A stretch of DNA of 64,000 bases from Chloroflexia bacterium (GTDB taxonomy: Bacteria > Chloroflexota > Chloroflexia > QHBQ01): NCBI GenBank assembly GCA_038230695.1, contig JBBRMT010000001.1, positions 132 to 64,131 of the forward strand. Reading direction: 5' to 3'. The notes below the pieces were generated by a model. That model was not told the origin of the DNA, did not search any database, and saw nothing but the letters and a program-made list of their open reading frames with translations. Shown in pieces: positions 35,590 through 50,580 of the stretch; position 1 is the first letter of the stretch, and every line of letters begins with the position of its first letter. A program made the position numbers and the translations under genes.

Positions 35590-36002
35590 TAAGATTTGCC
35601 GTCCTTATTTTTGATTCTTGCCTCGTCATGCTATGCCGCTTGCCTTGCTCTGGCCGGAGCAAGGGCAATCTAACCATTGGATGGGATGCTGGGGTTCAGC
35701 CTGCCTGTACTCCCGCCGACGGGGTGGAGTATCCTCTGCACAGGCATAGCTTTGCGAGGCTTCGATGGCTATTATACGCCATCCTGCGTTAAAATGCAAG
35801 GAACGCATAAGTAGCGCAAATGATACAAGCCCTATTGTTACTGCGCCCATTGCGGTGTATAATTACGGCGCATCAGAGGAAATAGTTTGTGTTTGGGCGG
35901 GCGCAGTTGGTAGCTGGTGGAAGCCATACTTGCAGCGTATAGCGCGGCGGCGCAAGCTTGGGCAAGAAGCGCAGCAGCCCAGGCAGGAGTGGAGGAGTGA
36001 GG

Positions 36003-36689
36003 ATGACACAGGGAGGACACGAGACCGACTGGGTGGTTGAACACCTGGGCAAGAGCGGTATATTCATATCGTTGAGCGAGGGGGCGCGACGGCTGCTGGC
36101 CGAGCGGATGCGGCGGCGCATCTATCGCAACGGCGCTTATATCTTCAACAAAGGCGATGTGGGTATCAGCCTCTATGTAATTGTGCGCGGTCGGGTCAAG
36201 CTGGTAGACCCAATCGAGAGCGGTGAGGAAATCATCATCGCGGTGCTGAAGGCTGGCGCGGTACTAGGCGAGTTGTCGCTATTCGATGGTGCGCCGCGCT
36301 CGGCCACTGCTGAGGCGCTCGAAGATGTGGAGGTGCTGGCCCTGGCGCGGGAAGATTTCATCGCGGCGCTGCGCTCGTTCCCCGACATGGCTCTAGCCCT
36401 GCTGGCGGGCATGGCCCGCACCATTCGGCGCATGAACGGCGAGGTGGAGGCGGCCATCTTCCTCGATCTGCCGGGGCGGGTGGCGAAGAAGCTGCTGGAA
36501 CTGGGCAAGGAGAGCGAAGGTACGACCCTGCATATCACTCAGACTGAGTTGGCCGACACGGTGGGCGCAACCCGCGTCAGCGTCAACAAGATTCTGGGCG
36601 ACTTCGCCAGCAGCGGCGCGGTACGCCTTGGCAAAGGGCGCATCGAGATTGTCGCCCCCGAAATGCTGCAGCGGCGCATCGTGTATTGA
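36003..36689 (+). CDS. Crp/Fnr family transcriptional regulator (cNMP-binding domain plus C-terminal HTH)
   Basis: cNMP-binding beta-roll (…GAVLGELSLFDGAPRSATAEALEDVEVLAL…) and HTH ITQTELADTVGATRVSVNKIL. ATG at 36003 with GGAGGAGTGAGG SD. Confidence 0.8.
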   Translation: MTQGGHETDWVVEHLGKSGIFISLSEGARRLLAERMRRRIYRNGAYIFNKGDVGISLYVIVRGRVKLVDPIESGEEIIIAVLKAGAVLGELSLFDGAPRSATAEALEDVEVLALAREDFIAALRSFPDMALALLAGMARTIRRMNGEVEAAIFLDLPGRVAKKLLELGKESEGTTLHITQTELADTVGATRVSVNKILGDFASSGAVRLGKGRIEIVAPEMLQRRIVY

Positions 36690-36788
36690 GTGATGAGTGA
36701 TGAGTGAAGTAGGAGGTTGCTCGTGCAGCTAAAGCTATAGAGACATTCTACATTCTACTGTCTACCTTCTGAATCAGAGGAATGAGCC

Positions 36789-36824
36789 GGTCAACAGGCA
36801 GCCATGACGGCTAACCTGTTGACC
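36789..36824. terminator. hairpin GGTCAACAGG-N16-CCTGTTGACC between convergent genes
   Basis: Perfect 10-bp inverted repeat seen directly. Confidence 0.5.
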
Positions 36825-36924
36825 AACCCACGGAAAGAGGAGAGTTGAGAGGAGAGGAGGTAGGGGAGGGTTCAGCGGGCGCGGTATGGGTCAGATACCG
36901 GCTCACTGAGGGGTGGCAGGGTGT

Positions 36925-37158
36925 CTACCAGCCCCTCCCGTTGCGGGCTACCCACATGGGAGCCTGATTCATCTGATACGAGCGGGTCAATGCGCTGTCG
37001 TAGCTCTGGTAGGAAGCCACTGGCATTGGGTTGATCGCAGAGGTGGCCTGTTGAAGCTGGCGGTCGGGCCGGGCAAAGTTGTTGTACAGGGTGTGGGCCT
37101 CGCCCTCGCGCTGCTCCTCATATTCGTGGAGCAAGCGGCGGATTATGCTGGATGTCAT
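36925..37158 (-). CDS. hypothetical small protein (77 aa)
   Basis: ORF with AAGGAAGAAAAGGAA upstream of the ATG. No domain recognised. Confidence 0.25.
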   Translation of the reverse strand: MTSSIIRRLLHEYEEQREGEAHTLYNNFARPDRQLQQATSAINPMPVASYQSYDSALTRSYQMNQAPMWVARNGRGW

Positions 37159-37542
37159 TTCCTTTTCTTCCTTTGCGGTCGGGGCGGGATGTTTTTGTTT
37201 TGCTTGCGCCCGACACCCTTATGATACTGCATCTGTGTGCGGCGGCGTATAAAGCGCTTTACAGACGGCGTGTAAAGTTGGCTACAGATAGGGAGGATAG
37301 AACCATGAAGCGCCAATCAGATTCGCCGCCATTGCGGACAACCGAGCAGCGCGGTTTCATCCCCGAAGATAAAGGGGAAGGCTGGGATGGCGAGTAGACC
37401 GAAGCTATATCCGATGCGCCAGCAATTACGACAGCGCGACGACCTACCCGGTTGTCGCGCCGTTTGGCAACTACGCCTGCTTATGGACACTCGAGGACGG
37501 CACCATGTGGCTTGGGGGAGCAGGTGGTATTTTGTTTAGGGA

Positions 37543-40057
37543 TTATTGATGCTTAGAAACTGGTCTGTTTCCAATGGGGGTGTTTGTTGGAGTTGGGTTA
37601 GTAACTCGGCGGATAGCATGAGCTATCATACTACTAATCTCATCCCGTCTAATATTATCATTGGGACGGAAACAGTGATCATTAGTGTCATTGCAAAGAT
37701 CGCCGTTTGTTATACCGGCATAGTGAATTGTCTCAATGGCATTAAAATCCCAGTCGGTGGAGAGTACATCTCTAAAAAAGCTTGCTTCTTGTCCGCCAGT
37801 AGGTGTAGAAGTGATTGTTAGGTACTTCCTAGCTCGGTAGATGGTAACCGCTAGCTGCCCACGAGTGACGGCTGCGTTGGGACTGAAAAGCCCGCCACCA
37901 ATGCCGTTCATTATCCCTACATGATTCACCGCCTCGATGTACTGATAGGCCCAGTAGCTTGATGGTACATCAGTAAAAGTGGGGCTTCCGGGCGTGAAAG
38001 TGGCTACACCGTATGCAAGACAGAGTATCTTGGCAAGTTGTGCACGGGTGACATTTTGGCTAGGGCCGAAAGCGCCACCACCAACACCAGACATCACTCC
38101 GCCACAAGCCAAAAACAGAATGTCCGTGGTAAAAACATTGCCGCTTATATCGTTAAAATTCGTAGTACAATAAGTGGGAAGGCTATTAACCGCATTGTTA
38201 GCGTTGATCAGACCCCACCCCATGCTGGTATCTGGTTGGTGGTAGTTGCCGAAGGTAGTGCTGTGTTCTATGTAATACTCTACCTCCCCTACTGTCATAT
38301 TTGGCCTCACAGACAGAAGCAAGGCGCTAGGCCGGTCACATGGGGAGCGGCCATGGAGGTGCCACCGTGTGTGTTGTAGCCGCTAGGGTCACAGAATATG
38401 TTACCCCCAGGGGGCGGAGTGTAGAGACATCCGGTCTTCGGTACACTAGAGCGAACATCGTCGCTAGGGGTGCCGTCCCTATTACCGCCAGGGGCCACTA
38501 CTTCAGGCTTTACGAGGTTTGTACTGGCATATGGAACCGCAGTCAAAGTTGGTATCAACGTAGGTGCAGGTCCTTCTGAACTGTAAGTCGCAAGCGCAAC
38601 ATTCCCGAATTGGTCAGGATGACCTACAGCTCCAACGCCAAAACCAAGGCGAAAGCTGGCAGGTCTGTCAATTGTTTGTGTGCCATGTACGTTGCCGGAA
38701 GCGAAGACAGTAGTGATGCCTGATGCTGCCAATGCATCCACTCCATCCAGCATCTCGATGTCTGTCTGATCGTTAGTTCCAAAGCTCCCATTAACAATGT
38801 TAGGTGCTTCGCCCGGCTCTGGGGTTCCTTGGAGGTTCTTTGGCCCTTTCATCCACGCCAAACATTGAGCGGCATTAAAGCTAAAAAAGCTGTTATTGTG
38901 GTCAATTGCTTTACAAGCTATCCACTGAGCAGCAGGTGCTACTCCAATCTAGTTAGTTCCATCAAGACCCAGGATAATGCCAGTTACATGGGTGCCGTGA
39001 CCCATATCGTCATACGGTGCGCTGTTGTTGTTCCCAACTGGGTCATACCAGTTGTATTCAGCTCCTGGGGTGGCCCCACGCCACTGACCAGCTACTGCCG
39101 GGTTCGATGGGTCCACCCCAGTGTCAATAACACCTACTGTAATCCCGTAGCCAAGAATCGGTGTAGGGCGGCCCCAAGCAGAGGGGGCGTTGATCAGGAT
39201 AATGTTCCATTCCCTGTCTGAGGCTGCGCTGGAGGTCCCGATAGGGAGGTATTAGGTTTTGTTTGCAAAGAGCTACGCTGCGTCGGCGTGCATCGGGGTG
39301 CAGATTGGGTAGGTTGGATCGTCGGGCTTGCGTTTGCATTAGGGTAGTAGTTGCCTGGATTAGATGACTCACCAGTTGCGTCTAGGTAGTGATAGTTTGG
39401 CTGCAAATAACCGATGTCATCGCGTGCGGCCAACACTTCAACCGCATGGGCTGTGCCTATAACATGGAATGAGTTCGGGCTGTCAAGGGCCGCGTACTGG
39501 CTTACCTCGCCTTCCTGCTCTAGTAGAATAATCGCGGCTTTGACCGCTGGCTGAGTGCGCTGGCTTACTTCAGTTATTCGGTCTTGAATGGTCTTACCTG
39601 CCTGAGTTTGACCCATTGAGCTAGTACCCTCAAGTGAAGGTTGCTCTTTGAGCAGCACAATAAAATCAACACTTTTGGGGTTATCCTTCATCGCCTTAGC
39701 CAAATCAGCATTGATCTTGTCTCTAGGATTAGGCGTTCCAGGTGTGCTTACTATGGTTGGTGAAGCAGGTGTGCTTACTATGGTTGGTGAAGTAGGTGTA
39801 TCTATGGTCGGAATAGGAGTAGGGTATATAAATGAAGCTATCGGGCTGGGTAGGAACGGCGTAGCGGTTGGCTGGCTAAGGTCAGCGGTGGGTGAGTCTA
39901 GGGCCGCCATCACTGAGGCGCATGGAGTGCCAGCAATACTATTGGTCGTTGAGGACTGAGTCCCTCCACTTGGGGGAGTTGAAGATGGAGCAGTACAAGC
40001 CACCAGCACGAGCGCCACCACCACCAGCGTATATACCTGAGTTCTAATCCTCTTCAT
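37543..40057 (-). pseudogene. decayed subtilase (peptidase S8) with 3 C-terminal SLH domains: lipoprotein signal and I9 propeptide (39194-40057), catalytic Asp/His segment, in-frame TAG at 38948-38950, Ser segment (38307-38861), then a -1 frameshift into the SLH part (37543-38322)
   Basis: Pieces read VGVIDTGVD…HGTHVTG…GTN*IGVAPAAQ…GTSMAAPHVTGLA|(frameshift)|LLLSVRPN…GWGLINANNAV followed by three SLH motifs. Lower GC than surroundings. Confidence 0.55.
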
Positions 40058-40465
40058 GTCCTTCTCCTTCTGTTCGGATAGCCTGCCCACCATCAAATAC
40101 GCATACGCAGGCGGATTGTACCACAAGCATGAGTAATCATCAATAGTACTTTTGGTGCCGTGCATCTAGTACCTGCGCGTGTCTACAGAATACAGACGAA
40201 CGAGCAGCAGGAAAAGTTCCGACCAAGGCGGACATAGTCCGTCCCTACGCACATAAATAAATACCTCGCTCACAAGGTTCTGATGGCGTTGTTGACCTAC
40301 CCTCAGCCCATGCCGGTGGGAGGGGAGAACATCAGAACTTTGTTTATCTGGCAATAAACGTTGCGTTTTGATGAACTGCATCCTATGCTTGACGCAATCT
40401 TGCGGTAGGGCTATAATAACCGTAGGCGAAGGCTGGCCTGGCAGACCAACCCTGGAGGTGCAGCG

Positions 40466-41041
40466 ATGGATAGTGCGGTACTAGAGCAAGCGCGAGCCGG
40501 TGATGCAGCGGCGTTCGCCGTGATCTACGAAACCTACAATCTGGCGATCCACAACTACGCCTATCGGCTGCTGGGCAACCAGGAGCAGGCCGACGATACC
40601 ACCCAGGAGACCTTCATCAAGGCGTACCAGAGCATCGGCAGCCTGCGTAACGAGGCGGGCTTGCAGGCGTGGCTATATCGCATCGCCTCCAACCTCTGCC
40701 TCGACGCGCTGCGGCGGCGCAAGGTGGTAGCGTGGCTGCCGTTGCGCGAGGAGCATAGCCGCGATGATACCCCGCCGCACGGGGTCAGCCTCGAACTCGT
40801 CGCGCCGCACGCCGATTTTGCCGCCGATTTCGCCGAGGCCGATGCGGTTCACGCCGTGCTAGCCCAGTTGCCCCCCCCACTGGCCGCCTGCCTGGTGTTG
40901 CGTAGCGTCGAGGGCTTCTCCTGCGACGAGATTGCCGAAATCCTGAAGATACCGCGTGGTACTGTCTGGAGCAGACTAGCGCGGGCGCGGGAACTGTTTG
41001 TCGCCGCCTACAATCATAGTGGGTCAGCGGGGGGCAAGTAG
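40466..41041 (+). CDS. ECF-type RNA polymerase sigma-70 family factor
   Basis: Region 2 QETFIKAYQSIGSLRNEAGLQAWLYRIASNLCLDALRRRK and region 4 LVLRSVEGFSCDEIAEILKIPRGTVWSRLARAREL. GGAGGT SD. Confidence 0.85.
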   Translation: MDSAVLEQARAGDAAAFAVIYETYNLAIHNYAYRLLGNQEQADDTTQETFIKAYQSIGSLRNEAGLQAWLYRIASNLCLDALRRRKVVAWLPLREEHSRDDTPPHGVSLELVAPHADFAADFAEADAVHAVLAQLPPPLAACLVLRSVEGFSCDEIAEILKIPRGTVWSRLARARELFVAAYNHSGSAGGK

Positions 41042-41044
41042 CAA

Positions 41045-44000
41045 GTGGGCTGTCCAGCATATAAAGACCTGCTCTCGCGCTACATTGACAACGAACTAAG
41101 CAAGCGTGAGCGCGAGGAGCTACAGGCGCACCTGCAAGTATGCAGCCGGTGCAGCCACGCGCTGGCTAAGTACCGGCAGATGGAAGCATTGCTCGGCAGC
41201 AACGCAACCAAGCCTGCGCCCAAGCCCAACCCTGCCGTGCGCGACAAGGTGTTGGCCGCCATCGAGCAACAGCAGCGGCAGCGCAGCCCGCTCAGTCGCA
41301 TGATGCATGGCAATAGCACCCGCCGCTTCAGCATCGCACGGGTAGCCGGGCTGGTGGTAATCGTCGGCGCGTTGAGCATCACTGCCGTGTTGCTGGCGCA
41401 GAACCCGGCAGCGCGGGGACTGTTGGGCCACGTTGCCGACACGGCGGGCGAACCCTCACCCACCCCCGATGTCGCCTTGACCAAAGTGGCGCAGGCCAAC
41501 GCTACAGCGTTGGCCGTGGCGGCTCTGCCACCGGCGCACATCACCAGCGCTGCGCCAGTAAGCAGCCAGAATCAGCTGCTCAAATCCGCCGCCGTGCCGC
41601 TCGATGCCGCCATTGCTATCCGCTTCGATGCGCCCATGGAGCGGGCTTCAGTAGAGAGCGCCTGGCAGATCAGCCCGCCCATCCCCGGCAGCTTCGATTG
41701 GGTGGCCGACAACGAGGTTCACTTCATTCCCTACAACCTGGGCTACATCCCCGCAGTTACCTATACTCTGATGTTGAGCAGCGCCGCCCATGTGCTGGGC
41801 GGCGGCTCACTGGCCGCACCCTTCACCTACACCTGGGCGACCATCGCGCCGCCCGCGTTGGTTGGATATGACCCTCCAAACTTGTCCGCCAATGTGGCGC
41901 TCACCCAGAGCATCGCCCTTAGTTTCAGCCAGCCGATGCAGCATCCCAGCGTGCAGATGGCTTTCAGCGTCAGCCCCAGCATCGCGGGCAAGTGGGCGTG
42001 GAACGCAGATAACCAGCAGGCCAGCTTCACCCCCGACGCGAGCTGGCAGCCGAACACCGCATATGCGATCAGCCTTAGCCATATGGCCGCCAGCGCCGCC
42101 GCTGTGCCGCTGGGCAAGGATGCCAACTGGCAGTTCGTCACCACCGATGTTGCGAAGGTCACGTTTAGCGCCGCGCAGCCGGGGCTAACCCTGCCGCTAA
42201 TCGCGCTGCCAGCCGGGCTGAGTCACTACAACATTCCGTTCAGCTTCAGCCAGCCTGATAACAGCATTAGCCAGCTTGTCTTCCAGCTATCCGCCGTCAG
42301 CGGCGGCGACATTGCCGCCCTACCGAAGCTGAAGCTGCTGGCGAACAGCGCTGTTGCCGTAAACGGCGCGACTAGCTACAGCGGCACGCTGACCCTGCAA
42401 CTGCAAGTCGGGGTCTATTTGCTGGCCGCGCCGACCGGCCAGCAGGTCTATTTGCTGGTGGGCGATGAGCAGCTAGTGGCGAAGCAGGCAGGCAGCCAAC
42501 TGCTGTTGTGGACCACCCGCAACGGCAAGCCAGTAGCCGGACAGGAGTTGCAGATATACGATGCTGCCCACACCCTGCTTGATGCGGGGCGCAGCAGGGC
42601 GGATGGCCTTTACCTCACCAACCTGAATCCAGGGGCAACCCCGGCCCTGGTGTTGGCGATAGACGGCAAGGTGGCGCGGGCGGTTGCCTTTATCGGTGGG
42701 CAACCTGCCAGTGGTGGCAACGTGCAGATATATGCCTACACTGATCGCGCCGCCTACACTGCTGGCGATGCCCTGAACTTCAAGGTGGTGGTACGCTCCG
42801 GCGATGCCACTGCCTACCAGTTGCCGTCGGTTGATGCCAGCATCAACATGGCCCTTGCCGATGCCAGCGGCGCTAACCTCGCCAGCGTAATGTTGCGCCC
42901 CGACAGCTACGGGACGGTGGGCGGCAGCTTCCCCCTCGCGCCTACGTTGCGCCATGGCTGGTACACCCTCAGCGCGGCGACCCTGGGGCAGCAGCAGCAA
43001 CTAATGGTATATGTCTACCAACAGGGCGCGGTTTCCCAACCAATCACCATCAGCGAAACCTCACCGCTAACCGCCACCGCAGGCAGCTTGAGTGTCACCC
43101 TGAACAAGAGCGCGTACAACGTTGGCGACACTGCCACCCTGACCATCAGCAATGCGCCCACCGCCAACACGCCGGTACTGTTGACCGTGGAGCGTGGCGG
43201 TTTCATCCTATACCGTAGCGGGGTAATCAGCGGCAGCGCCACCATTGAGTTGCCGATTAGCGCAACTATGGCTCCAGCGGCGCGGGTGCAGGTTAGCCTG
43301 CTGACTACCAACGGGCCGATCAGCACGGGAGCCAATCTACACGTGCCACTGGGCCACACCCTCGCAGTGGTTATAACCCCTGACTCCAACGCCAGGCCGG
43401 GGCATAATGCCATCTTCACCGTATCGGTAAGCGACAATCAAGGCCAGCCGCTACCTGCAATCCTATCTCTCAGCGTGGGCGATGCCCCACCCAGCAGCGA
43501 CATCAGCGCCGCTTTCTATCCCACCATGGTTATGCCTGCGCCGCTATATAGCGCCGCGCTAGCCTCACCCTCCACTCAAGATGTAGTAAGGCTGGGAGCA
43601 GACTCCCTCCCCCAAGATAGGGGAGGGTTGGCTGCAAACCCCCTCCCCCAAGATAGGGGAGGGTTGGCTGCAAACCCCCTCCCCCAAGATAGGGGAGGGT
43701 TGGGGAGGGGGGTCGTGCCAGCCACCCAGCTTGCCTACTGGGGCGGCAGCCTGCTGGTGGGCGCAAGCGGGGTGGCGACTTATAGCGTAGCCCTGCCCAA
43801 CACGGCACGGGGCGACTGGTGGGCCACGGCGCGGGTGGTCGGCGCAGACAACCGCTTCGGCCAGGTCAGCGCCAGCTTCGCGCTCACTTCCCCGCTGCAG
43901 GTTGTGCCACTTGCGCCCACCAGCTTCGTGCAGGGCGATCGGGTCAATATCGGCGCGACGCTGATAAACCATACCAATGCGCCAGTCAGCGGCCAGATAA

Positions 44001-45958
44001 CCCTGAGTTCCGATGGCCTGACCTTGATTGACACCAAACCGGCGCAGCAGAGCGTCTCGATTGCGGCAGGGCAATCACAGACCATCACCTGGCGGGTGCA
44101 GGTGCGCCGCGCCCGCGCAGTGCGGATGGTGTTCGACTTCTTTGCCGATGATGCTAGCAACAAGGGACTGGCGATGCCGCTGGATAGCTCGGTGGATGTC
44201 AACGCTGCGGTGCAGCCCGCCACGCCGGAGCAGGTCAGCGCCAGCGCAGGGATGACCGCTGCCAGCGCGACGGTGACGGCGACGATGCAGCCAGAACCAG
44301 CCGCCGACCTGAGCAGTATGGAGATCGAGGTTGACCCCTCGATCGCATCGGCCCTGATTGGCAGCCTGGGGGCGGAGCTTGATGCCAATGCTTCAGGCAG
44401 TGAGGCGATGAGCGGGCTGGCGGCGGAGGCGGCCCAGTTGGATGATGCCTTCAGCCGCTTGCAGTACAGCAAGGCGGCTTTGCCAGGCTTCACCGAGGCA
44501 GTAGGCGCGGCGATGCAGGGCGTGTATACCAACCAGCAACCCGATGGCGGCTGGGGTGACAGTGGCGCGGGCAGTGAGGTGTGGACAACCGCTTTCACCC
44601 TGCACAATCTGGCCCGCATCCGCGATGCCGGGCAGGAAGTGGATACCCAGGTAACGGCGCGGGCGGTTGCCTGGCTGCGTCGCCAGTTGCCGCAGATGAC
44701 TGACGAGCAACGCGCTTATAGCTACTACGTGCTGGCTCTGTACGGCGCAGCGGATCTCAGTGAGGTGCGCCTGCTGCTGGCCCAGCCGCTCGACCACTTT
44801 GGCGCGGCGGCCCTGATCCTGGCGCTGCAACGGTTGGGCGACCGTGAGGCGGCGGTGTTGCTAGCGCATCAACTTTCGGTAGCGGCGACTATCAGCAATG
44901 GTGAACTGGCTAGCTGGCAGTCCGATGCGGTGGGCAGCGATGTGGCAACCGCCACCGCAGTCGAAGCCTTGCTCCAAACTGTGCCTAGCGATCCGCTAAT
45001 CAGTCGCGGGGTGAGCGGGCTGCTTGCGGCGCGGGTGAGCCGCCGCTGGGCAACGACGCGTTCGAGCAGCACGGCGTTTGCCACCCTGAACGATTACGCG
45101 ATTGAAACCAGCGATGGCCGCAACAGTGGCGTGCCATTGCGGGTCAACAACGATGTGCCATCACCACCGCAACCCGTTCACAATCCGATTGGCGGTTACA
45201 ACTTCAAGCTATACCTTAATGGTACGCTACTAACCGAGGTGGATGTGGATCCCAGCAACCTCAGCGCGGCGCATCGCCTGATCAGCCTGTCCACCGATAA
45301 GCTGCAAGCGCAGAATGTCATCCAGATAGTGAGTAGCGGCGGCAATCCCCTCTATTATGCGATTACCACCCATTATCGCCACAGCATCAACGCCAGTTTT
45401 ACTGCCAGCGACGATGATGCCCGCCGCTTCAGTCTGGAGAATCCCCGCGCCATCCCCTCAAACGCTAGCAACATTCTGAGCATCAGCCGCAGCTACCAGA
45501 ACCTCGACCATCCTGATGCCAACCAGATCGTTGTTGGCGATACGCTACGAGTCTTGCTCAATGTACAGGTGAGCAGCGATGCCGCGCCAGTGCTACAGGC
45601 GGTTGTCAACGATCCGCTGGCCGCAGGCTTCACCTTGATTGGGCCAGAGCAGGCAGCCCGTCCGCTGCGTAGTATGGGCAGCCGAGGTAGCCCTGATGGT
45701 GGCTTTAGCAGCGACAGCGCGATCGCCAACAGCGTCTACGCCAGCTTCAACCACGATGCGGGCAGCGTCAGCTTCAACGTGGCGCAGATGCAGCCGGGCG
45801 CAACCTATAACTTTAGCTATCTGGAGCAGGCCACCATAAGCGGCGACTTTTCCGCCCTGCCTGCGTCGGCCTATCCCGCCCAGCAACCCGATAGCGTGGC
45901 AACCTCAGCCAGCAACCTGATCAGCATAAATGCGCCCAGCAGCAAGGGACAGGAGTGA
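41045..45958 (+). CDS. anti-sigma factor (zf-HC2, single TM) fused to a ~1550-aa extracytoplasmic region: Big_5/SbsA-type Ig-like domains, macroglobulin (MG)-like domains, and an alpha-2-macroglobulin thioester-domain-like alpha/alpha toroid lacking the CGEQ thioester, ending in an A2M receptor-binding-like domain
   Basis: N-terminus MGCPAYKDLLSRYIDNELSKREREELQAHLQVCSRCSHAL (H-x3-C-x2-C). TM FSIARVAGLVVIVGALSITAVLLA. TED-like YTNQQPDGGWGDSGAGSEVWTTAFTLHNLARIRDAGQEVDTQVTARAVAWLRRQ (compare human A2M …YDGSY…NTWLTAFVLKTFAQAR…ALIWLSQRQ). The position expected for CGEQ reads SGSEA. GTG start 3 nt after the sigma stop. Confidence 0.7.
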   Translation: MGCPAYKDLLSRYIDNELSKREREELQAHLQVCSRCSHALAKYRQMEALLGSNATKPAPKPNPAVRDKVLAAIEQQQRQRSPLSRMMHGNSTRRFSIARVAGLVVIVGALSITAVLLAQNPAARGLLGHVADTAGEPSPTPDVALTKVAQANATALAVAALPPAHITSAAPVSSQNQLLKSAAVPLDAAIAIRFDAPMERASVESAWQISPPIPGSFDWVADNEVHFIPYNLGYIPAVTYTLMLSSAAHVLGGGSLAAPFTYTWATIAPPALVGYDPPNLSANVALTQSIALSFSQPMQHPSVQMAFSVSPSIAGKWAWNADNQQASFTPDASWQPNTAYAISLSHMAASAAAVPLGKDANWQFVTTDVAKVTFSAAQPGLTLPLIALPAGLSHYNIPFSFSQPDNSISQLVFQLSAVSGGDIAALPKLKLLANSAVAVNGATSYSGTLTLQLQVGVYLLAAPTGQQVYLLVGDEQLVAKQAGSQLLLWTTRNGKPVAGQELQIYDAAHTLLDAGRSRADGLYLTNLNPGATPALVLAIDGKVARAVAFIGGQPASGGNVQIYAYTDRAAYTAGDALNFKVVVRSGDATAYQLPSVDASINMALADASGANLASVMLRPDSYGTVGGSFPLAPTLRHGWYTLSAATLGQQQQLMVYVYQQGAVSQPITISETSPLTATAGSLSVTLNKSAYNVGDTATLTISNAPTANTPVLLTVERGGFILYRSGVISGSATIELPISATMAPAARVQVSLLTTNGPISTGANLHVPLGHTLAVVITPDSNARPGHNAIFTVSVSDNQGQPLPAILSLSVGDAPPSSDISAAFYPTMVMPAPLYSAALASPSTQDVVRLGADSLPQDRGGLAANPLPQDRGGLAANPLPQDRGGLGRGVVPATQLAYWGGSLLVGASGVATYSVALPNTARGDWWATARVVGADNRFGQVSASFALTSPLQVVPLAPTSFVQGDRVNIGATLINHTNAPVSGQITLSSDGLTLIDTKPAQQSVSIAAGQSQTITWRVQVRRARAVRMVFDFFADDASNKGLAMPLDSSVDVNAAVQPATPEQVSASAGMTAASATVTATMQPEPAADLSSMEIEVDPSIASALIGSLGAELDANASGSEAMSGLAAEAAQLDDAFSRLQYSKAALPGFTEAVGAAMQGVYTNQQPDGGWGDSGAGSEVWTTAFTLHNLARIRDAGQEVDTQVTARAVAWLRRQLPQMTDEQRAYSYYVLALYGAADLSEVRLLLAQPLDHFGAAALILALQRLGDREAAVLLAHQLSVAATISNGELASWQSDAVGSDVATATAVEALLQTVPSDPLISRGVSGLLAARVSRRWATTRSSSTAFATLNDYAIETSDGRNSGVPLRVNNDVPSPPQPVHNPIGGYNFKLYLNGTLLTEVDVDPSNLSAAHRLISLSTDKLQAQNVIQIVSSGGNPLYYAITTHYRHSINASFTASDDDARRFSLENPRAIPSNASNILSISRSYQNLDHPDANQIVVGDTLRVLLNVQVSSDAAPVLQAVVNDPLAAGFTLIGPEQAARPLRSMGSRGSPDGGFSSDSAIANSVYASFNHDAGSVSFNVAQMQPGATYNFSYLEQATISGDFSALPASAYPAQQPDSVATSASNLISINAPSSKGQE
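43605..43703 (+). repeat. 2.7 tandem copies of a 36-bp unit (CCCTCCCCCAAGATAGGGGAGGGTTGGCTGCAAACC) in frame within the anti-sigma/A2M-like CDS; each unit can form an 8-bp GC hairpin (CCCTCCCC/GGGGAGGG)
   Basis: Seen directly; copies start at 43605, 43641 and 43677 and encode LPQDRGGLAANP repeats. Confidence 0.8.
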
Positions 45959-45959
45959 T

Positions 45960-47252
45960 ATGGAAAAGTTCGTCATCGAGGGCGGCCACCGCCTGCACGG
46001 CGAGATTACCCCCACTGGCAACAAGAACGCCGCCCTGCCGCTGCTAGCCGCCTGCTTGCTCACGGCTGATACAATTACCTATCATAACCTGCCCCAGATC
46101 AATGATGTACGGACCATGTTGGCGATCCTGCAGAGTATCGGTGTTACCGTGGACACCAGCCGCTGGGATGCGGATAAGAGCGTGCGGCTGACAGCGCAAC
46201 GGGTAGCCAGCAGCGAACTCGACTACGAACTGTGCCGCCGCATCCGTGCCAGCCTGCTGCTGATGGGGCCGATGCTGGCACGGGTGGGCGAGGTGCGGGT
46301 CGGCAAGCCGGGCGGCGATTATATTGGCCGCCGCCCGGTGGATACCCACTTCCTTGCTCTGGAGGCGCTCGGCGCAACGGCGGTGATTGACCGTAGCGCT
46401 TACAATCTAAAGACTAAGGGCTTGCGCGGGGCGGACATCTTTCTAAACGAGGCCAGCGTGACCGGCACCGAGAACGCGATTATGGGCGCGGCGCTGGCCG
46501 AGGGCAGCACGGTGATATGCAACGCGGCCTGCGAACCGCACGTGCAGGAGCTTTGCCTGTTCCTCAACGACCTGGGCGCAAACATAAGCGGCATTGGCAG
46601 CAATCAGCTTTACATCGAGGGGGTTGCCGCGCTACACGGTGGCGAACACACCATCGAGAGCGACAACATCGAGGTAGGCAGCTATATCGGGCTGGCGGCG
46701 GTAACTGGCAGCGAACTGCTAATCCGCAACGCCATGCCCAGGCATCTGCGTATGACCAGCCTGGTATTCCGCCGTCTGGGAGTGGAGTTGGAAGTGCGCG
46801 GTGAGGATGTGTTCGTCCCCGGCGGGCAGCAACTAAAGGTGCAGAACGATCTGCGCGGCGATATCCCTTACATTGACGATGCGCCCTGGCCCGGCTTCCC
46901 CGCCGACCTGATGAGCATCGCCCTGACGGTGGCAACCCAGGCCAGCGGCACGATTATTATGTTTGAGAAGATGTTCGACGGGCGGCTGTTCTTTGTGGAC
47001 AAGCTGAACGGCATGGGCGCACGCATCATCCTATGCGACCCCCATCGCGCCGTGGTCATCGGCCCATCACGGCTGCATGGCGAGGAGCTATCCAGCCCCG
47101 ACATCCGTGCTGGTATGGCGATCCTGCTTGCCGCGCTAACCGCCGAGGGCGAAAGCGTCATCCGCAACGTGCAGCAGATCGATCGCGGCTATGAGCGCAT
47201 CGAGGAGCGCCTGCAAGCGTTGGGCGCACGTATCGAGCGGGTGGCGGACTGA
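45960..47252 (+). CDS. murA: UDP-N-acetylglucosamine 1-carboxyvinyltransferase (MurA), natural Cys-to-Asp active-site variant
   Basis: MEKFVIEGGHRLHGEITPTGNKNAALPLLAACLL… The active-site loop reads KPGGDYIGRRPVD where E. coli has LPGGCAIGARPVD (Cys115). ATG at 45960 with GGGACAGGAG SD. Confidence 0.9.
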   Translation: MEKFVIEGGHRLHGEITPTGNKNAALPLLAACLLTADTITYHNLPQINDVRTMLAILQSIGVTVDTSRWDADKSVRLTAQRVASSELDYELCRRIRASLLLMGPMLARVGEVRVGKPGGDYIGRRPVDTHFLALEALGATAVIDRSAYNLKTKGLRGADIFLNEASVTGTENAIMGAALAEGSTVICNAACEPHVQELCLFLNDLGANISGIGSNQLYIEGVAALHGGEHTIESDNIEVGSYIGLAAVTGSELLIRNAMPRHLRMTSLVFRRLGVELEVRGEDVFVPGGQQLKVQNDLRGDIPYIDDAPWPGFPADLMSIALTVATQASGTIIMFEKMFDGRLFFVDKLNGMGARIILCDPHRAVVIGPSRLHGEELSSPDIRAGMAILLAALTAEGESVIRNVQQIDRGYERIEERLQALGARIERVAD

Positions 47253-47283
47253 TGGGGTGAGGCTTATACCTAATTGGATGCTG

Positions 47284-47586
47284 CTACACCATCCACAAGC
47301 CTGGAAAATAGGCAGCAGCCTTAGCAGCCACTCCCCGTTGTGCATCCTCCAGAGTAAGCGGTTCCAACCTGAAAGGCGCTGAAGCCCAAATTGCTTGTTC
47401 GGCCAAGGGATAATACTTGAGCTGGCCGCCCGAGCCTCCATACCATTCAAAGATTTTACCTTTATTATCTTCACCTACAAGACGGTTCGTTGTAGGGAAA
47501 CTCCATTTTAGGCTTTGCGGATCAGGAAGATTTAGAGCAAGTTGATGTAGCTGGTAAATGCCTTTCTTATTCCACGAAAGGACCAA
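47284..47586 (-). CDS. 100-codon ORF in frame with, and separated only by a TAA from, the upstream 156-codon ORF; likely the C-terminal part of a nonsense-interrupted restriction endonuclease
   Basis: TTG directly follows the TAA at 47587-47589 in the same frame. Low-GC island. Confidence 0.3.
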   Translation of the reverse strand: MVLSWNKKGIYQLHQLALNLPDPQSLKWSFPTTNRLVGEDNKGKIFEWYGGSGGQLKYYPLAEQAIWASAPFRLEPLTLEDAQRGVAAKAAAYFPGLWMV

Positions 47587-48057
47587 TTAGGAACTCTTAG
47601 CCAGATCTACTCTGCCGCCATTGCCAATGCTAACCTGCTGATGCCATCTAGCAATCAGTTCGACAAGTGCCATTCCTACTATTGCAGGATTATCTCTATA
47701 GGTAGCTTCAGTAAGAGCTTTGCCCCTGAGATGCTGCCAAAACTTTTTGTTGGAGTTGGATAGCTCTACAGTCAGCTTGCCAGTTCTATTTATATCATCA
47801 AGAGTTCTCCTCATCTTGCATGATATACCATAGAAAATGCCACTTCTTTCAGATATAGGCACAAGTACATCGAATATTGCCTTGCTCTCCTGTGCTGAAC
47901 CGCCAAAACCTATAGCCACTGCACGCTCAAAGTCACGCCAGCCAGGAGCGCTGCGACCATCTGGCAAAATTAGCATACCAGTCCCATCTTGAAATGTACT
48001 TAGCAACAAACGCAGTTTTTCTAGCTGGTTCGCGGTAGGAGTATCAGGTGTGGTCAT
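47587..48057 (-). CDS. putative restriction endonuclease (N-terminal 156 codons), translationally coupled to the upstream C-protein gene
   Basis: ATGA overlap with the C-protein stop. Classic C-R operon arrangement opposite a Dam-like methyltransferase. No confident PD-(D/E)xK assignment. Confidence 0.4.
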   Translation of the reverse strand: MTTPDTPTANQLEKLRLLLSTFQDGTGMLILPDGRSAPGWRDFERAVAIGFGGSAQESKAIFDVLVPISERSGIFYGISCKMRRTLDDINRTGKLTVELSNSNKKFWQHLRGKALTEATYRDNPAIVGMALVELIARWHQQVSIGNGGRVDLAKSS

Positions 48058-48296
48058 ATCTTCTCCTCATTGGTAGAGTAACCGTCCAAGTCAAGCTCAT
48101 CTTTCAATAGCTGATCGGTACTTACATCGAACAAACGGGACACCGATAGTACAAACTTAACTGTAGGGATCTTCTTACCAGCCTCTATCTCGCTGATGTA
48201 GCCATGCGCTCTGTGGCCCAAAGAAATGGCTAGCTGCTTAAGACTTAGCCCTCGCGCCACCCTAAGCTTATGCAACTTTTCACCAAACCTTTGCAT
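48054..48296 (-). CDS. R-M controller (C) protein, XRE-family HTH (80 aa)
   Basis: LHKLRVARGLSLKQLAISLGHRAHGYISEIEAGKKIPTVKFVLSVSRLF is an HTH_XRE fold. Size and position (overlapping the R gene start) are typical of C-proteins. Confidence 0.65.
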   Translation of the reverse strand: MQRFGEKLHKLRVARGLSLKQLAISLGHRAHGYISEIEAGKKIPTVKFVLSVSRLFDVSTDQLLKDELDLDGYSTNEEKI

Positions 48297-48320
48297 TATA
48301 CAAACTCCTGTGTTATGCTC

Positions 48321-48349
48321 TTGACAGTAGAGAATTATTATGTTACAAT
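48321..48349 (+). promoter_or_regulatory. sigma70-type promoter TTGACA-N17-TACAAT driving the methyltransferase gene, followed by the inverted repeat GTCTC-TGATA-GAGAC (48350-48364)
   Basis: Near-consensus hexamers with a 17-nt spacer seen directly. The inverted repeat lies between the -10 and the M-gene RBS and is a candidate C-protein/operator site. Confidence 0.55.
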
Positions 48350-48408
48350 GTCTCTGATAGAGACGTTATGAATGTAGTCTCCAAGTTTGGCGAAAGGACA
48401 TTCCAACC

Positions 48409-49290
48409 ATGGGCATCAGAGAAGCTCAGATCATTAGTGACTACCAGATGATCAACAGCCCAATCAAATGGGTTGGTGGTAAGTCCCGCCTGCGTAAGTT
48501 CATTGTCGAGCTGCTGCCAGAGCATAGCTGCTACGTGGAGCCGTTTGCAGGCGCAGCCTGGGTACTGTTCGGCAAGCCGCCTTCGCCGGTCGAAGTTCTA
48601 AACGATCGGGATGAGGATCTTACCACCTTCTTCCGGGTGGTCAAAGAGAAGCCAGAGGAATTGATCGCCTCCTTCGAGTGGGAACTAGTTGCCCGCGTTG
48701 AGTTTGAGCGATTGGCCTCACTTAACCCCAAGCAGCTCACCGATGTGCAACGCGCCCACCGTTTCTACTATCTGATCACGGCGGGCTGGGGCGGTGAATT
48801 GAATTACCCTCGCTTCCAAACCAGCATTAGCGATGGCGGCCACGGCAATCGGCTAATTGGTGCGCTTAAAACCCTGCGCCAGCGGCTGGAGCCAGTTCAT
48901 GAGCGGCTACGCACTGTGATCATCGAATGTCTTGACTGGCGCGATTGCATTGAGCGCTATGACCGGCCCGGCACAGCTATGTATCTTGACCCGCCCTATC
49001 CGGGCAACAAGTGTAACTACGCGCACAATATGCGCGAGTGGACCGATCATCTTGCGTTGGCAAGCCGTCTCGCCAATGCCAAGTGCCGCTGGATTCTCTC
49101 CTCATATGACATAGGGGAGGTGCGTGCCACATTCGGCAAATATGTAATCACGCCGGTGCAATCTTTCTCTGGTATGAGTACCGAAAAGAACGGCGGCACC
49201 AGGGTGCTGAACCAGGAAGTGCTTATTACTAACTTCGAGCCTTCCACTTCTACGCAGGAAGTCATTGCAGCGGATAAGCCTTGGTTCTAG
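48409..49290 (+). CDS. DNA adenine methyltransferase, Dam-like (D12 class, N6-adenine)
   Basis: Motifs KWVGGKSRL (K-W-x-G-G-K), VEPFAGAAWV (AdoMet-binding F-x-G-x-G) and DPPY (catalytic motif IV). Confidence 0.85.
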   Translation: MGIREAQIISDYQMINSPIKWVGGKSRLRKFIVELLPEHSCYVEPFAGAAWVLFGKPPSPVEVLNDRDEDLTTFFRVVKEKPEELIASFEWELVARVEFERLASLNPKQLTDVQRAHRFYYLITAGWGGELNYPRFQTSISDGGHGNRLIGALKTLRQRLEPVHERLRTVIIECLDWRDCIERYDRPGTAMYLDPPYPGNKCNYAHNMREWTDHLALASRLANAKCRWILSSYDIGEVRATFGKYVITPVQSFSGMSTEKNGGTRVLNQEVLITNFEPSTSTQEVIAADKPWF

Positions 49291-49559
49291 GCTCTTCATG
49301 CTATATCCCAGCTAAAGTTTGCCATGTGCAAGCCTTTATAGCCGCTCTATTTCATGCCGAAGAACTCACCCTAGACGCAGAGCTGTAAGTCTGTCTCGAC
49401 CAATCCGAAACCATCTTCGATACTTTTAATTATACCAAATCGTCGAGTAGGTGTGCGCTTACGAGTGAAGGCCGCCAATTTATACGCAACGCCCCAGCAA
49501 GGTTTGTGCGTAATCTCACTTGATCGCACTTCCGGCTGCAAAATAGAGCGAGTAAAGTA

Positions 49560-49589
49560 TTGACAGTTGCCCCTTTCGTATTGTATATT
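49560..49589 (+). promoter_or_regulatory. sigma70-type promoter TTGACA-N18-TATATT upstream of the ABC-3 permease gene
   Basis: Seen directly. AT-rich intergenic region. Confidence 0.5.
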
Positions 49590-49637
49590 CTAGGCAGGAC
49601 AGGCAGCACGACGGCTGCCAATAATTAAGACCCCATC

Positions 49638-49652
49638 TGATACACAGTATCA
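49638..49652 (+). promoter_or_regulatory. perfect palindrome TGATAC-ACA-GTATCA between the promoter and the start codon; candidate metalloregulator (Zur/Fur/MntR-like) operator
   Basis: 6-3-6 inverted repeat seen directly, ~30 nt upstream of the ATG at 49684. Confidence 0.4.
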
Positions 49653-49683
49653 ACAAGCAGGGGCCTGCAGCGAAGGGAGATCA

Positions 49684-50580
49684 ATGTTCGACCAACTAAG
49701 CCAATGTATGCAGCAGGGCGGTATCGGCTATTGCCTGACCAGTCCACTTAGCTACCCCTTTATGCGTTATGGCATGATCGAAGCGGCGCTGGTGGGGCTA
49801 ATCTGCGGGGTAATCGGATGCTACGTGGTGCTGCGTGGCCTCGCCTTTCTCGGCGATGCTTTCTCGCACGGTATTCTCCCCGGCGTTGTGATCGCCTATA
49901 TATTGGGCCAGAGCGTGTTTCTTGGCGGGTTGCTGGCCGCGATTATTATTGGCGCAATTATCGCCCTGCTGTCGCAGAATCAGCGTATCAGCGAGGACAC
50001 CTCGATTGGCATCATCTTCGCATGCGCATTCGCGCTCGGCATCGTGCTGCTAAGTAGCCAGCGCAACTACACCTCCAGCCTCACCACTATCCTAACTGGC
50101 GATGTGCTGGGGGTCAGTCCAAACGATATTGTTCTCACCATCATCGTGGGCGCGATTGTGGTGGGCGGCGTGGCGTTGCTATACAAGGAGTTCCTACTCA
50201 CTAGCTTCGACCGCGCCATGGCGGCGGCGATGGGCTTCAACATCGGCCTGCTCGACCTCGCGCTAATCGTGCTGATTGCACTCGCAGTGGTGGTCAGCCT
50301 GCAGGCGCTGGGCAACATACTGGTGCTGGCGATGCTGGTCACTCCTGCGGCTACTGCTCGCTTGCTCACCGATCGGCTGCCGAGGATGATGGTGATCGCC
50401 GGGGCGCTGGGTGCGCTCGAAGGTGTGGTCGGTCTATACACATTCTTTTACGTCAAGGTGGCGGCGGGCGGCTCGATTGTGCTGCTATCAACCATCGTTT
50501 TCATGCTGGTGCTGGCGCTGTCACCGAAGCACGGCGGGCTAGCATGGCTGCGCCAGCGTCGCGCCCGCGCTACCACTTGA
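49684..50580 (+). CDS. ABC-3 family metal (Mn/Zn) transporter permease, ZnuB/MntB-like
   Basis: MIEAALVGLICGVIGCYVVLRGLAFLGDAFSHGILPGVVIAY… is a typical ABC-3 permease N-terminus with 8-9 TM helices. No cognate ATPase or SBP gene is adjacent. Confidence 0.75.
   Translation: MFDQLSQCMQQGGIGYCLTSPLSYPFMRYGMIEAALVGLICGVIGCYVVLRGLAFLGDAFSHGILPGVVIAYILGQSVFLGGLLAAIIIGAIIALLSQNQRISEDTSIGIIFACAFALGIVLLSSQRNYTSSLTTILTGDVLGVSPNDIVLTIIVGAIVVGGVALLYKEFLLTSFDRAMAAAMGFNIGLLDLALIVLIALAVVVSLQALGNILVLAMLVTPAATARLLTDRLPRMMVIAGALGALEGVVGLYTFFYVKVAAGGSIVLLSTIVFMLVLALSPKHGGLAWLRQRRARATT

Follow-up and report, generated by a model that had tools for sequence, protein, structure and literature searches.

In the PvuII, AhdI and Esp1396I controller (C) circuits, a small helix-turn-helix (HTH) gene of the XRE type is located just upstream of the restriction endonuclease (REase) gene and overlaps it, and the C gene is itself preceded by a conserved operator. 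The same features are found in a 64-kb window of DNA from a Chloroflexota genome (the whole stretch analysed here; all coordinates are positions in this window), where a C gene and an REase gene (R) are divergent from an adenine DNA methyltransferase gene (M) and where R is interrupted by an in-frame TAA codon. We assign a probability of about 80% to the reading that this cassette is a recently acquired, C-dependent Type II restriction-modification (R-M) system in which R was inactivated by a single TAY-to-TAA change while C, the operator and M are intact. The operator differs from those of the three systems named above: they display a double C-box of 35 bp, whereas a single consensus palindrome of 17 bp is present here, and this palindrome abuts the -10 element of the M promoter, so that one site would serve both promoters. 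This geometry implies that C would control M too, a likeness to Esp1396I (PMC3488213).

The EcoRV system of E. coli pLG13 is also comparable in its organisation, with a D12-class methylase divergent from a C-R operon, a C gene overlapping R and palindromic operator sequences in a short intergenic region; C.EcoRV represents the "palindromic" type of C-box (PMC2632904). However, the EcoRV nuclease gives an hhalign probability of 1.8% with the R studied here and belongs to another PADLOC model (PDLC03472), and the window R gives no hit with the Pfam family Endonuc_EcoRV. The methylases of the two systems are only 25% identical, the C proteins share 41% identity over 37 residues, and the pLG13 operator is of the CCCATTTTGGG type, unlike TGTCTCTAnTAGAGACA here. 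Homology with the EcoRV system was thus rejected for R and for the operator, and what the two systems share is their organisation and possibly a remote fold.

The nuclease family itself is represented in PADLOC by the REase_II model PDLC03417. This is practically a single-sequence model of WP_222959300.1, a protein of 261 aa encoded by plasmid pCW.Ay of Micrococcus luteus (NZ_CP082332.1); over the whole length of the model this protein scores 545 bits, against 147 bits for the window R. The M. luteus protein is 38.5% identical to the window R over 99% of the joined product (the parts before and after the TAA read as one chain), and its partner is also a D12-class adenine methylase. In contrast, the M. 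luteus locus (L082, 3492-5406) contains no C gene, and its methylase is convergent, carries an N-terminal DUF6262 fusion, is 30% identical to the window M and has PDLC03244 as its best PADLOC model. DUF6262 may be a regulatory DNA-binding module in the actinobacterial branch. The M. luteus R-M pair adjoins an IS481 transposase. The name of a prototype enzyme was sought in the plasmid annotation, the cluster names, the literature and a homologue search seeded with the M. luteus protein, which returned only "hypothetical protein" and one UniRef entry named "Restriction endonuclease". MluI, MluCI and Sse9I were considered in the literature and no name was recovered; MluCI was rejected as prototype, being described as related to EcoRI and MunI (PMC4081073).

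The endonuclease gene and its premature stop

The original prediction placed in a low-GC island a C gene overlapping by ATGA a 156-codon open reading frame (ORF), followed after the TAA by 100 further codons in the same frame (257 in total), and a divergent M driven by a near-consensus promoter. The ORF map and the minus-strand sequence display exactly this layout, and a promoter scan located the promoter as TTGACA-17-TACAAT (Table 1). The joined 257-aa product matches PDLC03417 over positions 13-254 of 262 (E 1.4e-43). Taken alone, the N-terminal fragment matches positions 13-151 (E 1.9e-29) and the C-terminal fragment positions 189-254 (E 1e-9). Because the 100-codon frame following the TAA has its own match to the C-terminal part of the model, it is not open by chance.

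The joined product was used as query against 5.8 billion proteins and recovered 926 homologues, the best 120 of which were listed. Most of these 120 consist of a single polypeptide of 255-293 aa that spans 97% of the query; the remainder comprises the 156-aa product of the window itself (P0003), three shorter entries and 19 longer ones. Of the 19 longer proteins (325-403 aa), 18, of 346-403 aa, carry an HTH domain at the N-terminus (among them P0070, P0082, P0085, P0091, P0111 and P0118; for example loci L005, L008 and L011). The sources of this group are mostly metagenome-assembled genomes of Dehalococcoidia. Its six aligned members are continuous in-frame C-R fusions, and the operator-binding domain is therefore joined to the nuclease itself.

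A second set was built from GTDB species representatives and contains 80 genomic loci with an R homologue. A C homologue (52-74% identity) is located just upstream of R in all 80, and a divergent M homologue (63-79% identity) is present in 79, the last one being cut by the end of the contig. The single REase model, the single-ORF homologues and this recurring layout support the C-controlled Type II cassette that had been predicted. They also bear on a reading without any pseudogene, in which the ORFs of 156 and 100 aa would be distinct genes by nature (for a two-subunit nuclease, as had been suggested, or two unrelated small genes). The ORF structure of this single window would fit such an arrangement, and the 156-aa product has apparently been called as a protein in public annotation (P0003). 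Yet the best 120 homologues span both parts, except for the window's own product and the three truncated entries, all 80 genomic loci are single-gene except for three with other defects, one hidden Markov model spans both parts, and the joined product gives one compact AF2 model. The check for homologues encoded by two genes thus had the opposite outcome and, judging from these comparisons, separate genes are already refuted and retain practically no probability.

The proposal that R represents an undescribed nuclease family did not hold either, given the match to PDLC03417 and the 926 homologues. Scans of Pfam and NCBIfam with both fragments, the joined R and 98 family members revealed no meaningful family, and a sequence-profile search of the PDB with R gave no match. 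As far as these profile searches indicate, the family is already catalogued (PADLOC/REBASE-derived) and has no Pfam or NCBIfam model.

The TAA replaces codon 157. At the corresponding position, 50 of the 80 genomic loci have TAT, 27 have TAC and three have TTT or TTC; the TAA is one third-position change away from a Tyr codon. Inactivation by a nonsense codon, as first proposed, is borne out by the Tyr codon of 77 of the 80 loci, and of the alternatives then listed the decaying system is the one favoured by this result. The same TAA terminates 12 of the 38 long frames of the window and no tRNA gene was found within the window; nothing points to recoding.

The joined R was modelled with AlphaFold (AF2) from the family alignment. 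The model is compact, with a predicted local distance difference test (pLDDT) score of 93.6 and a predicted template modelling (pTM) score of 0.89, and is composed of an alpha/beta N-terminal part followed by a beta-rich part with strands at 159-215. The premature stop falls exactly between the two parts. The residues E44, D63, K81 and E98 are invariant in the family alignment and S79 is near-invariant; all are included in the N-terminal fragment. The pattern E44...D63...S79-x-K81...E98 on an alpha-beta-beta-beta-alpha-beta core looks like a variant of PD-(D/E)xK in the model. The middle acidic position is occupied by the near-invariant Ser (S79-C-K81), presumably as in variants of the Cfr10I type, and the spacing E44...D63...S79xK81 parallels the EcoRV motif, E45...D74...D90xK92. 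Foldseek searches of the PDB with the full model and with the model of the N-terminal fragment returned non-significant matches only, mostly with EcoRV (E 0.2-1), which is the most frequent structural match of the window R. The earlier statement that R has no obvious PD-(D/E)xK or HNH signature has therefore to be nuanced: the conserved pattern resembles a variant, while the fold search is not significant.

When the 156-aa fragment is modelled alone, pLDDT falls to 83.9 and the strands 81-83 and 97-99, which carry the invariant K81 and E98, are missing. The lost C-terminal part contains 18 invariant residues, including the block EWYGxSGGQLKYYP. Because of these lost residues and missing strands, the truncated R is, according to the models, very unlikely to be an active nuclease.

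An active enzyme could nevertheless be made if the stop were real and bypassed, either by an ochre-suppressor tRNA-Tyr or by reinitiation at the TTG of TAATTG, giving a split enzyme. The cut lies exactly at the boundary of the alpha/beta core and the beta-rich domain, Tyr is the residue inserted by classical ochre suppressors, and a TTG start directly follows the stop with AAGAG 7 nt upstream. However, AAGAG merely codes for conserved K-S residues, the 80 genomic loci include no case of a break at this codon, and among the best 120 of the 926 homologues no further protein of half length occurs. The ordinary use of TAA in the window, the lack of a tRNA gene there and the loss of the strands carrying K81 and E98 from the isolated N-fragment model speak against bypass too, and we regard it as very improbable.

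Apart from its stop, R contains no frameshift and displays four mismatches at 81 conserved columns, a number equalled or exceeded in 15 of 76 homologues; M displays three mismatches at 128 conserved columns. Against 97 database homologues the window R is the most deviant sequence (9 of 104 columns). Its nearest relative, L016, has several of these deviations too, and in the comparison with the 76 genomic loci the window R does not stand out at conserved columns. On these two grounds we rejected a substitution excess in R that would point to prolonged relaxation of selection. Since R, stop aside, is no more deviant than M or C, the sequence comparison suggests that the lesion is either recent or a base-calling error.

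If the TAA were a sequencing or assembly error, the true codon would be TAT or TAC and the cassette would be a fully functional C-dependent Type II R-M system. The otherwise undamaged R and the intact C, operator, promoter and M would fit this explanation, and another fragmented gene of the window could reflect the quality of the assembly. Nevertheless, substitution errors that create stops are rare in polished assemblies, and that other gene appears frameshifted rather than substituted. Moreover, R was inactivated independently in three of the 80 other loci, and real R-minus copies are thus expected in the family. We consider an error unlikely, and inactivation of R by a real stop remains the preferred reading.

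Several points weigh against this preferred reading. R shows no clear substitution excess over M and C, which fits a very recent event or an artefact, and the stop depends on one base in one assembly. No relative of this cassette allele more than 70% identical was found in the databases searched, and the mutation is therefore not directly datable or polarisable. The second broken gene of the window (an S8/SLH protease, 37543-40165) could mean either real pseudogenes or assembly errors. Finally, the binding of C to the palindrome and the position of the C/R promoter are deduced from geometry, and the PD-(D/E)xK assignment is based on a motif pattern and secondary structure, with non-significant EcoRV matches in Foldseek.

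Table 1. Positions of the cassette elements and of the island borders in the 64-kb window
Feature	Position	Strand	Evidence or remark
R, Type II restriction endonuclease pseudogene, 257 codons including the internal stop	47284..48057	-	TAG at 47286-47284; PADLOC and homologues
R N-terminal fragment, 156 codons	47590..48057	-	putative catalytic core; PDLC03417 positions 13-151
Premature TAA, R codon 157	47587..47589	-	replaces near-invariant Tyr in block SSYLVLSWN
R C-terminal 100 codons, now untranslated or orphaned	47287..47586	-	beta-rich domain, invariant EWYGxSGGQLKYYP block
C (controller) gene, 80 aa, XRE-type HTH	48054..48296	-	Pfam, PADLOC and PDB matches
AGGAG Shine-Dalgarno of C gene	48309-48305	-	
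C stop TGA and R start ATG, overlapping as ATGA	48057-48054	-	
Putative C-box operator, 17-bp palindrome	48349..48365	.	core GTCTCTGATAGAGAC at 48350-48364
M promoter TTGACA-17-TACAAT, extended -10 TG	48321..48349	+	promoter scan, 11/12 matches
M gene, D12-class N6-adenine DNA methyltransferase, intact, 293 aa	48409..49290	+	PF02086
Alternative M start, Met14	48448	+	
Left junction of the island	47256..47283	.	homology to the closest relative stops at 47255
Low-GC non-coding stretch from M to the ABC-3 permease gene	49291..49683	.	contains the right island border

Controller, operator and methyltransferase

The C protein is recognised by the Pfam families HTH_19, HTH_31 and HTH_3 and by the PADLOC models HTH_VI (9e-11) and Control_protein (4.6e-5), and it displays a weak match in the PDB to C.AhdI (E 9e-4). 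The alignment of the regions upstream of C revealed a palindrome of 17 bp with the consensus TGTCTCTAnTAGAGACA. With a loose pattern, one copy was detected in 62 of the 72 intergenic regions, and the 61 loci that were scored show almost no variation at any of its positions. Two bases of the window copy deviate from the consensus, one outer (48365) and one inner (48356); this copy is the only full one in the 64 kb and is located 53 nt upstream of the ATG of C. We read this conserved palindrome as the putative operator of the C protein.

On the M strand, the consensus of the family is TTGACA-N14-TGnTAnaaT, that is a consensus -35 element and an extended -10 element at a fixed distance from the palindrome. 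The last base of the M -10 element is the first base of the palindrome, and the transcription start of M is therefore expected inside it. On the C strand, the palindrome is followed in the consensus by ttnTAnCA, and the sequence GTCAA (part of TGTCAA) starts 24 nt beyond the core palindrome in 54 of the 60 loci with a match. The palindrome and the M promoter account for all the conserved intergenic positions. If the -10 element of the C/R promoter overlaps TGTCAA, C would be a class-II-like activator centred near -43; if it corresponds to TAnCAt just beyond the palindrome, C would be a pure autorepressor.

In intact copies, as comparison of the loci shows, the near-consensus extended -10 promoter expresses the D12 methylase at once, and the HTH C protein is co-transcribed with the endonuclease and translationally coupled to it through the ATGA overlap. 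By analogy with the C proteins that have been studied (PMC2175313, PMC3488213, PMC2632904), we infer that a C dimer would then bind the 17-bp palindrome, touching the M -10 element and covering the M start site. This binding would lower and shut down M, and would tune the level and the timing of C-R transcription. In the window copy, the change of Tyr codon 157 to TAA would cut R between the alpha/beta core and the beta-rich domain, with loss of restriction.

M was identified by PF02086 (MethyltransfD12, E 6.7e-22) and by the PADLOC MTase_II model PDLC03253 (E 9.4e-52). Of the motifs first listed for this enzyme, KWVGGK and DPPY are present, but the literal FxGxG is absent: the S-adenosylmethionine-binding motif reads FAGAA. 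In the homologues checked, this motif is identical or slightly altered (FAGAA in L015, FSGAA in L039). The nearest solved relatives in the PDB are DpnM and E. coli Dam, both distant (E 1e-11). M was rejected as a Dam (GATC) equivalog, scoring 90.4 bits with TIGR00571 dam against a cutoff of 114.85 and 43.8 with PRK10904 against 441.

From the sequence of the locus, the window copy would now behave as a C-regulated orphan adenine methylase. It resembles the orphan Dam-family methylases derived from R-M decay by an intact adenine methylase beside the dead gene of its cognate nuclease. It differs from them in that M is not a Dam equivalog, and in that the R remnant, the C gene and the operator are still present, which indicates an early stage and not an established orphan.

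Genomic setting and island borders

GC content is 0.43-0.46 over 47350-48550 (R, C and the intergenic region) and about 0.46-0.47 over 49150-49600, against about 0.61 in the flanks; the whole 393-bp non-coding stretch that follows M (49291-49683) has a GC content of 0.48. The GC drop first reported between about 47260 and 49680 was thus found for R, C, the intergenic region and the stretch after M, whereas the body of M is merely intermediate (0.54-0.57). GC content at third codon positions (GC3) is 0.40 in R, 0.53 in C and 0.64 in M, versus 0.77 in the murA gene of the host; across 76 other loci, M and R share the same median GC. The GC3 contrast within the cassette could indicate a mosaic origin or a faster amelioration of the expressed gene.

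The MurA protein encoded just upstream of the cassette shares 92% identity with a partial protein that bears the label Candidatus Chloroheliales, and 95% with the MurA of the closest relative, the forest-soil contig L083 (ENA ERZ1758402). With blastn, this contig is colinear with the window over 34763-47255, ending 3 nt past the stop of murA, and no match was found beyond. This places the left edge of the island no more than 30 nt from the R stop. In L083, murA is followed by a Type IV restriction gene with Mrr_N and Mrr_cat domains (L083 9518-10441) and by unrelated genes. From these two contigs, the site that follows murA appears to be a place where defence genes vary. The best reading is that the cassette was acquired horizontally by the Chloroflexota genome, directly downstream of murA.

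The right edge is located somewhere in 49291-49683. This stretch has no match in any of the loci compared and contains no Rfam family, and no flanking repeats, tRNA or Rfam elements marking the ends of the island or a mobility mechanism were found. A near-consensus promoter-like site, TTGACA-18-TATATT (49560-49589), faces the ABC-3 gene (metal ABC transporter permease, 49684-50580).

Two other features were observed on the murA side. A 3.1-kb segment (37287-40409, GC 0.51) is missing from the syntenic relatives L083 and L084. It contains a subtilase (Peptidase_S8, profile positions 111-250 only) plus SLH-domain gene, now divided over three or more ORFs of the minus strand (39194-40165, 38307-38861 and 37543-38322). 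This segment is either a second low-GC insertion in which another gene has apparently become a pseudogene, with recently acquired DNA decaying in this genome, or an indication that the assembly contains errors. Upstream of murA, a 1637-aa ORF (41045-45958) contains anti-sigma (zf-HC2) and alpha-2-macroglobulin-type domains according to the annotation of a relative, and about three copies of the short tandem peptide repeat ANPLPQDRGGL. A gene for an extracytoplasmic function (ECF) sigma factor precedes it in the relatives.

Distribution and decay of the cassette family

The cassette has been found in Chloroflexota (Anaerolineae, Dehalococcoidia, Chloroflexia and Ktedonobacteria), in Pyrinomonadaceae and other Acidobacteriota, in Armatimonadota and in a few other groups. 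Its GC content is below that of the flanks in 74 of 76 loci, with a median of 0.48 versus 0.60, and the DNA similarity between loci is limited to the coding regions. Because of this GC contrast and of the confinement of DNA similarity to coding regions, the cassette seems to behave as a small mobile unit without conserved ends. The depletion of palindromes was analysed in 597 kb of flanking host DNA; numerous 6-mers proved to be depleted, and no single candidate for the recognition site emerged.

Besides the window, three R copies are damaged: one by a stop inside the invariant block PGWRDFER (L056), one by a stop near residue 146 (L076) and one, in the nearest relative of the window (L016), by a frameshift between residues 195 and 200. 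The sole stop in M, versus these three damaged R copies, is located near the end of the gene (L039). Across the aligned loci, the loss of R is a recurrent fate in this cassette family.

The family is common among Chloroflexota, Pyrinomonadaceae, Armatimonadota and other groups of soil and subsurface habitats. We also propose, tentatively and as a doubtful extension, that it may represent a Type IIP system that has never been characterised. It would combine a remote EcoRV-like PD-(D/E)xK nuclease, an undescribed single-palindrome class of C-box (TGTCTCTAnTAGAGACA) and a one-operator switch that occludes the consensus M promoter. In that case the window copy would be retained because its C-regulated orphan methylase serves an epigenetic function, and would not be a cassette on its way to loss.

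The lesion of R is an ordinary stage of R-M decay and not a new kind of enzyme. The biology is modest, and the use of the locus lies less in the pseudogene itself than in what the comparison yielded along the way. This REase family has more than 900 members, whose annotation outside PADLOC/REBASE is "hypothetical protein", and no Pfam or NCBIfam model, and the conserved operator and promoter architecture constitutes a testable putative C-protein switch. The repair of one base would turn the R of this uncultured Chloroflexota lineage into a candidate for a new restriction enzyme. The locus itself illustrates cleanly, in nature, how R-M decay begins, with a lone nonsense codon in R beside an intact C, operator and M, and such a loss of R is thought to be a route to orphan methylases.

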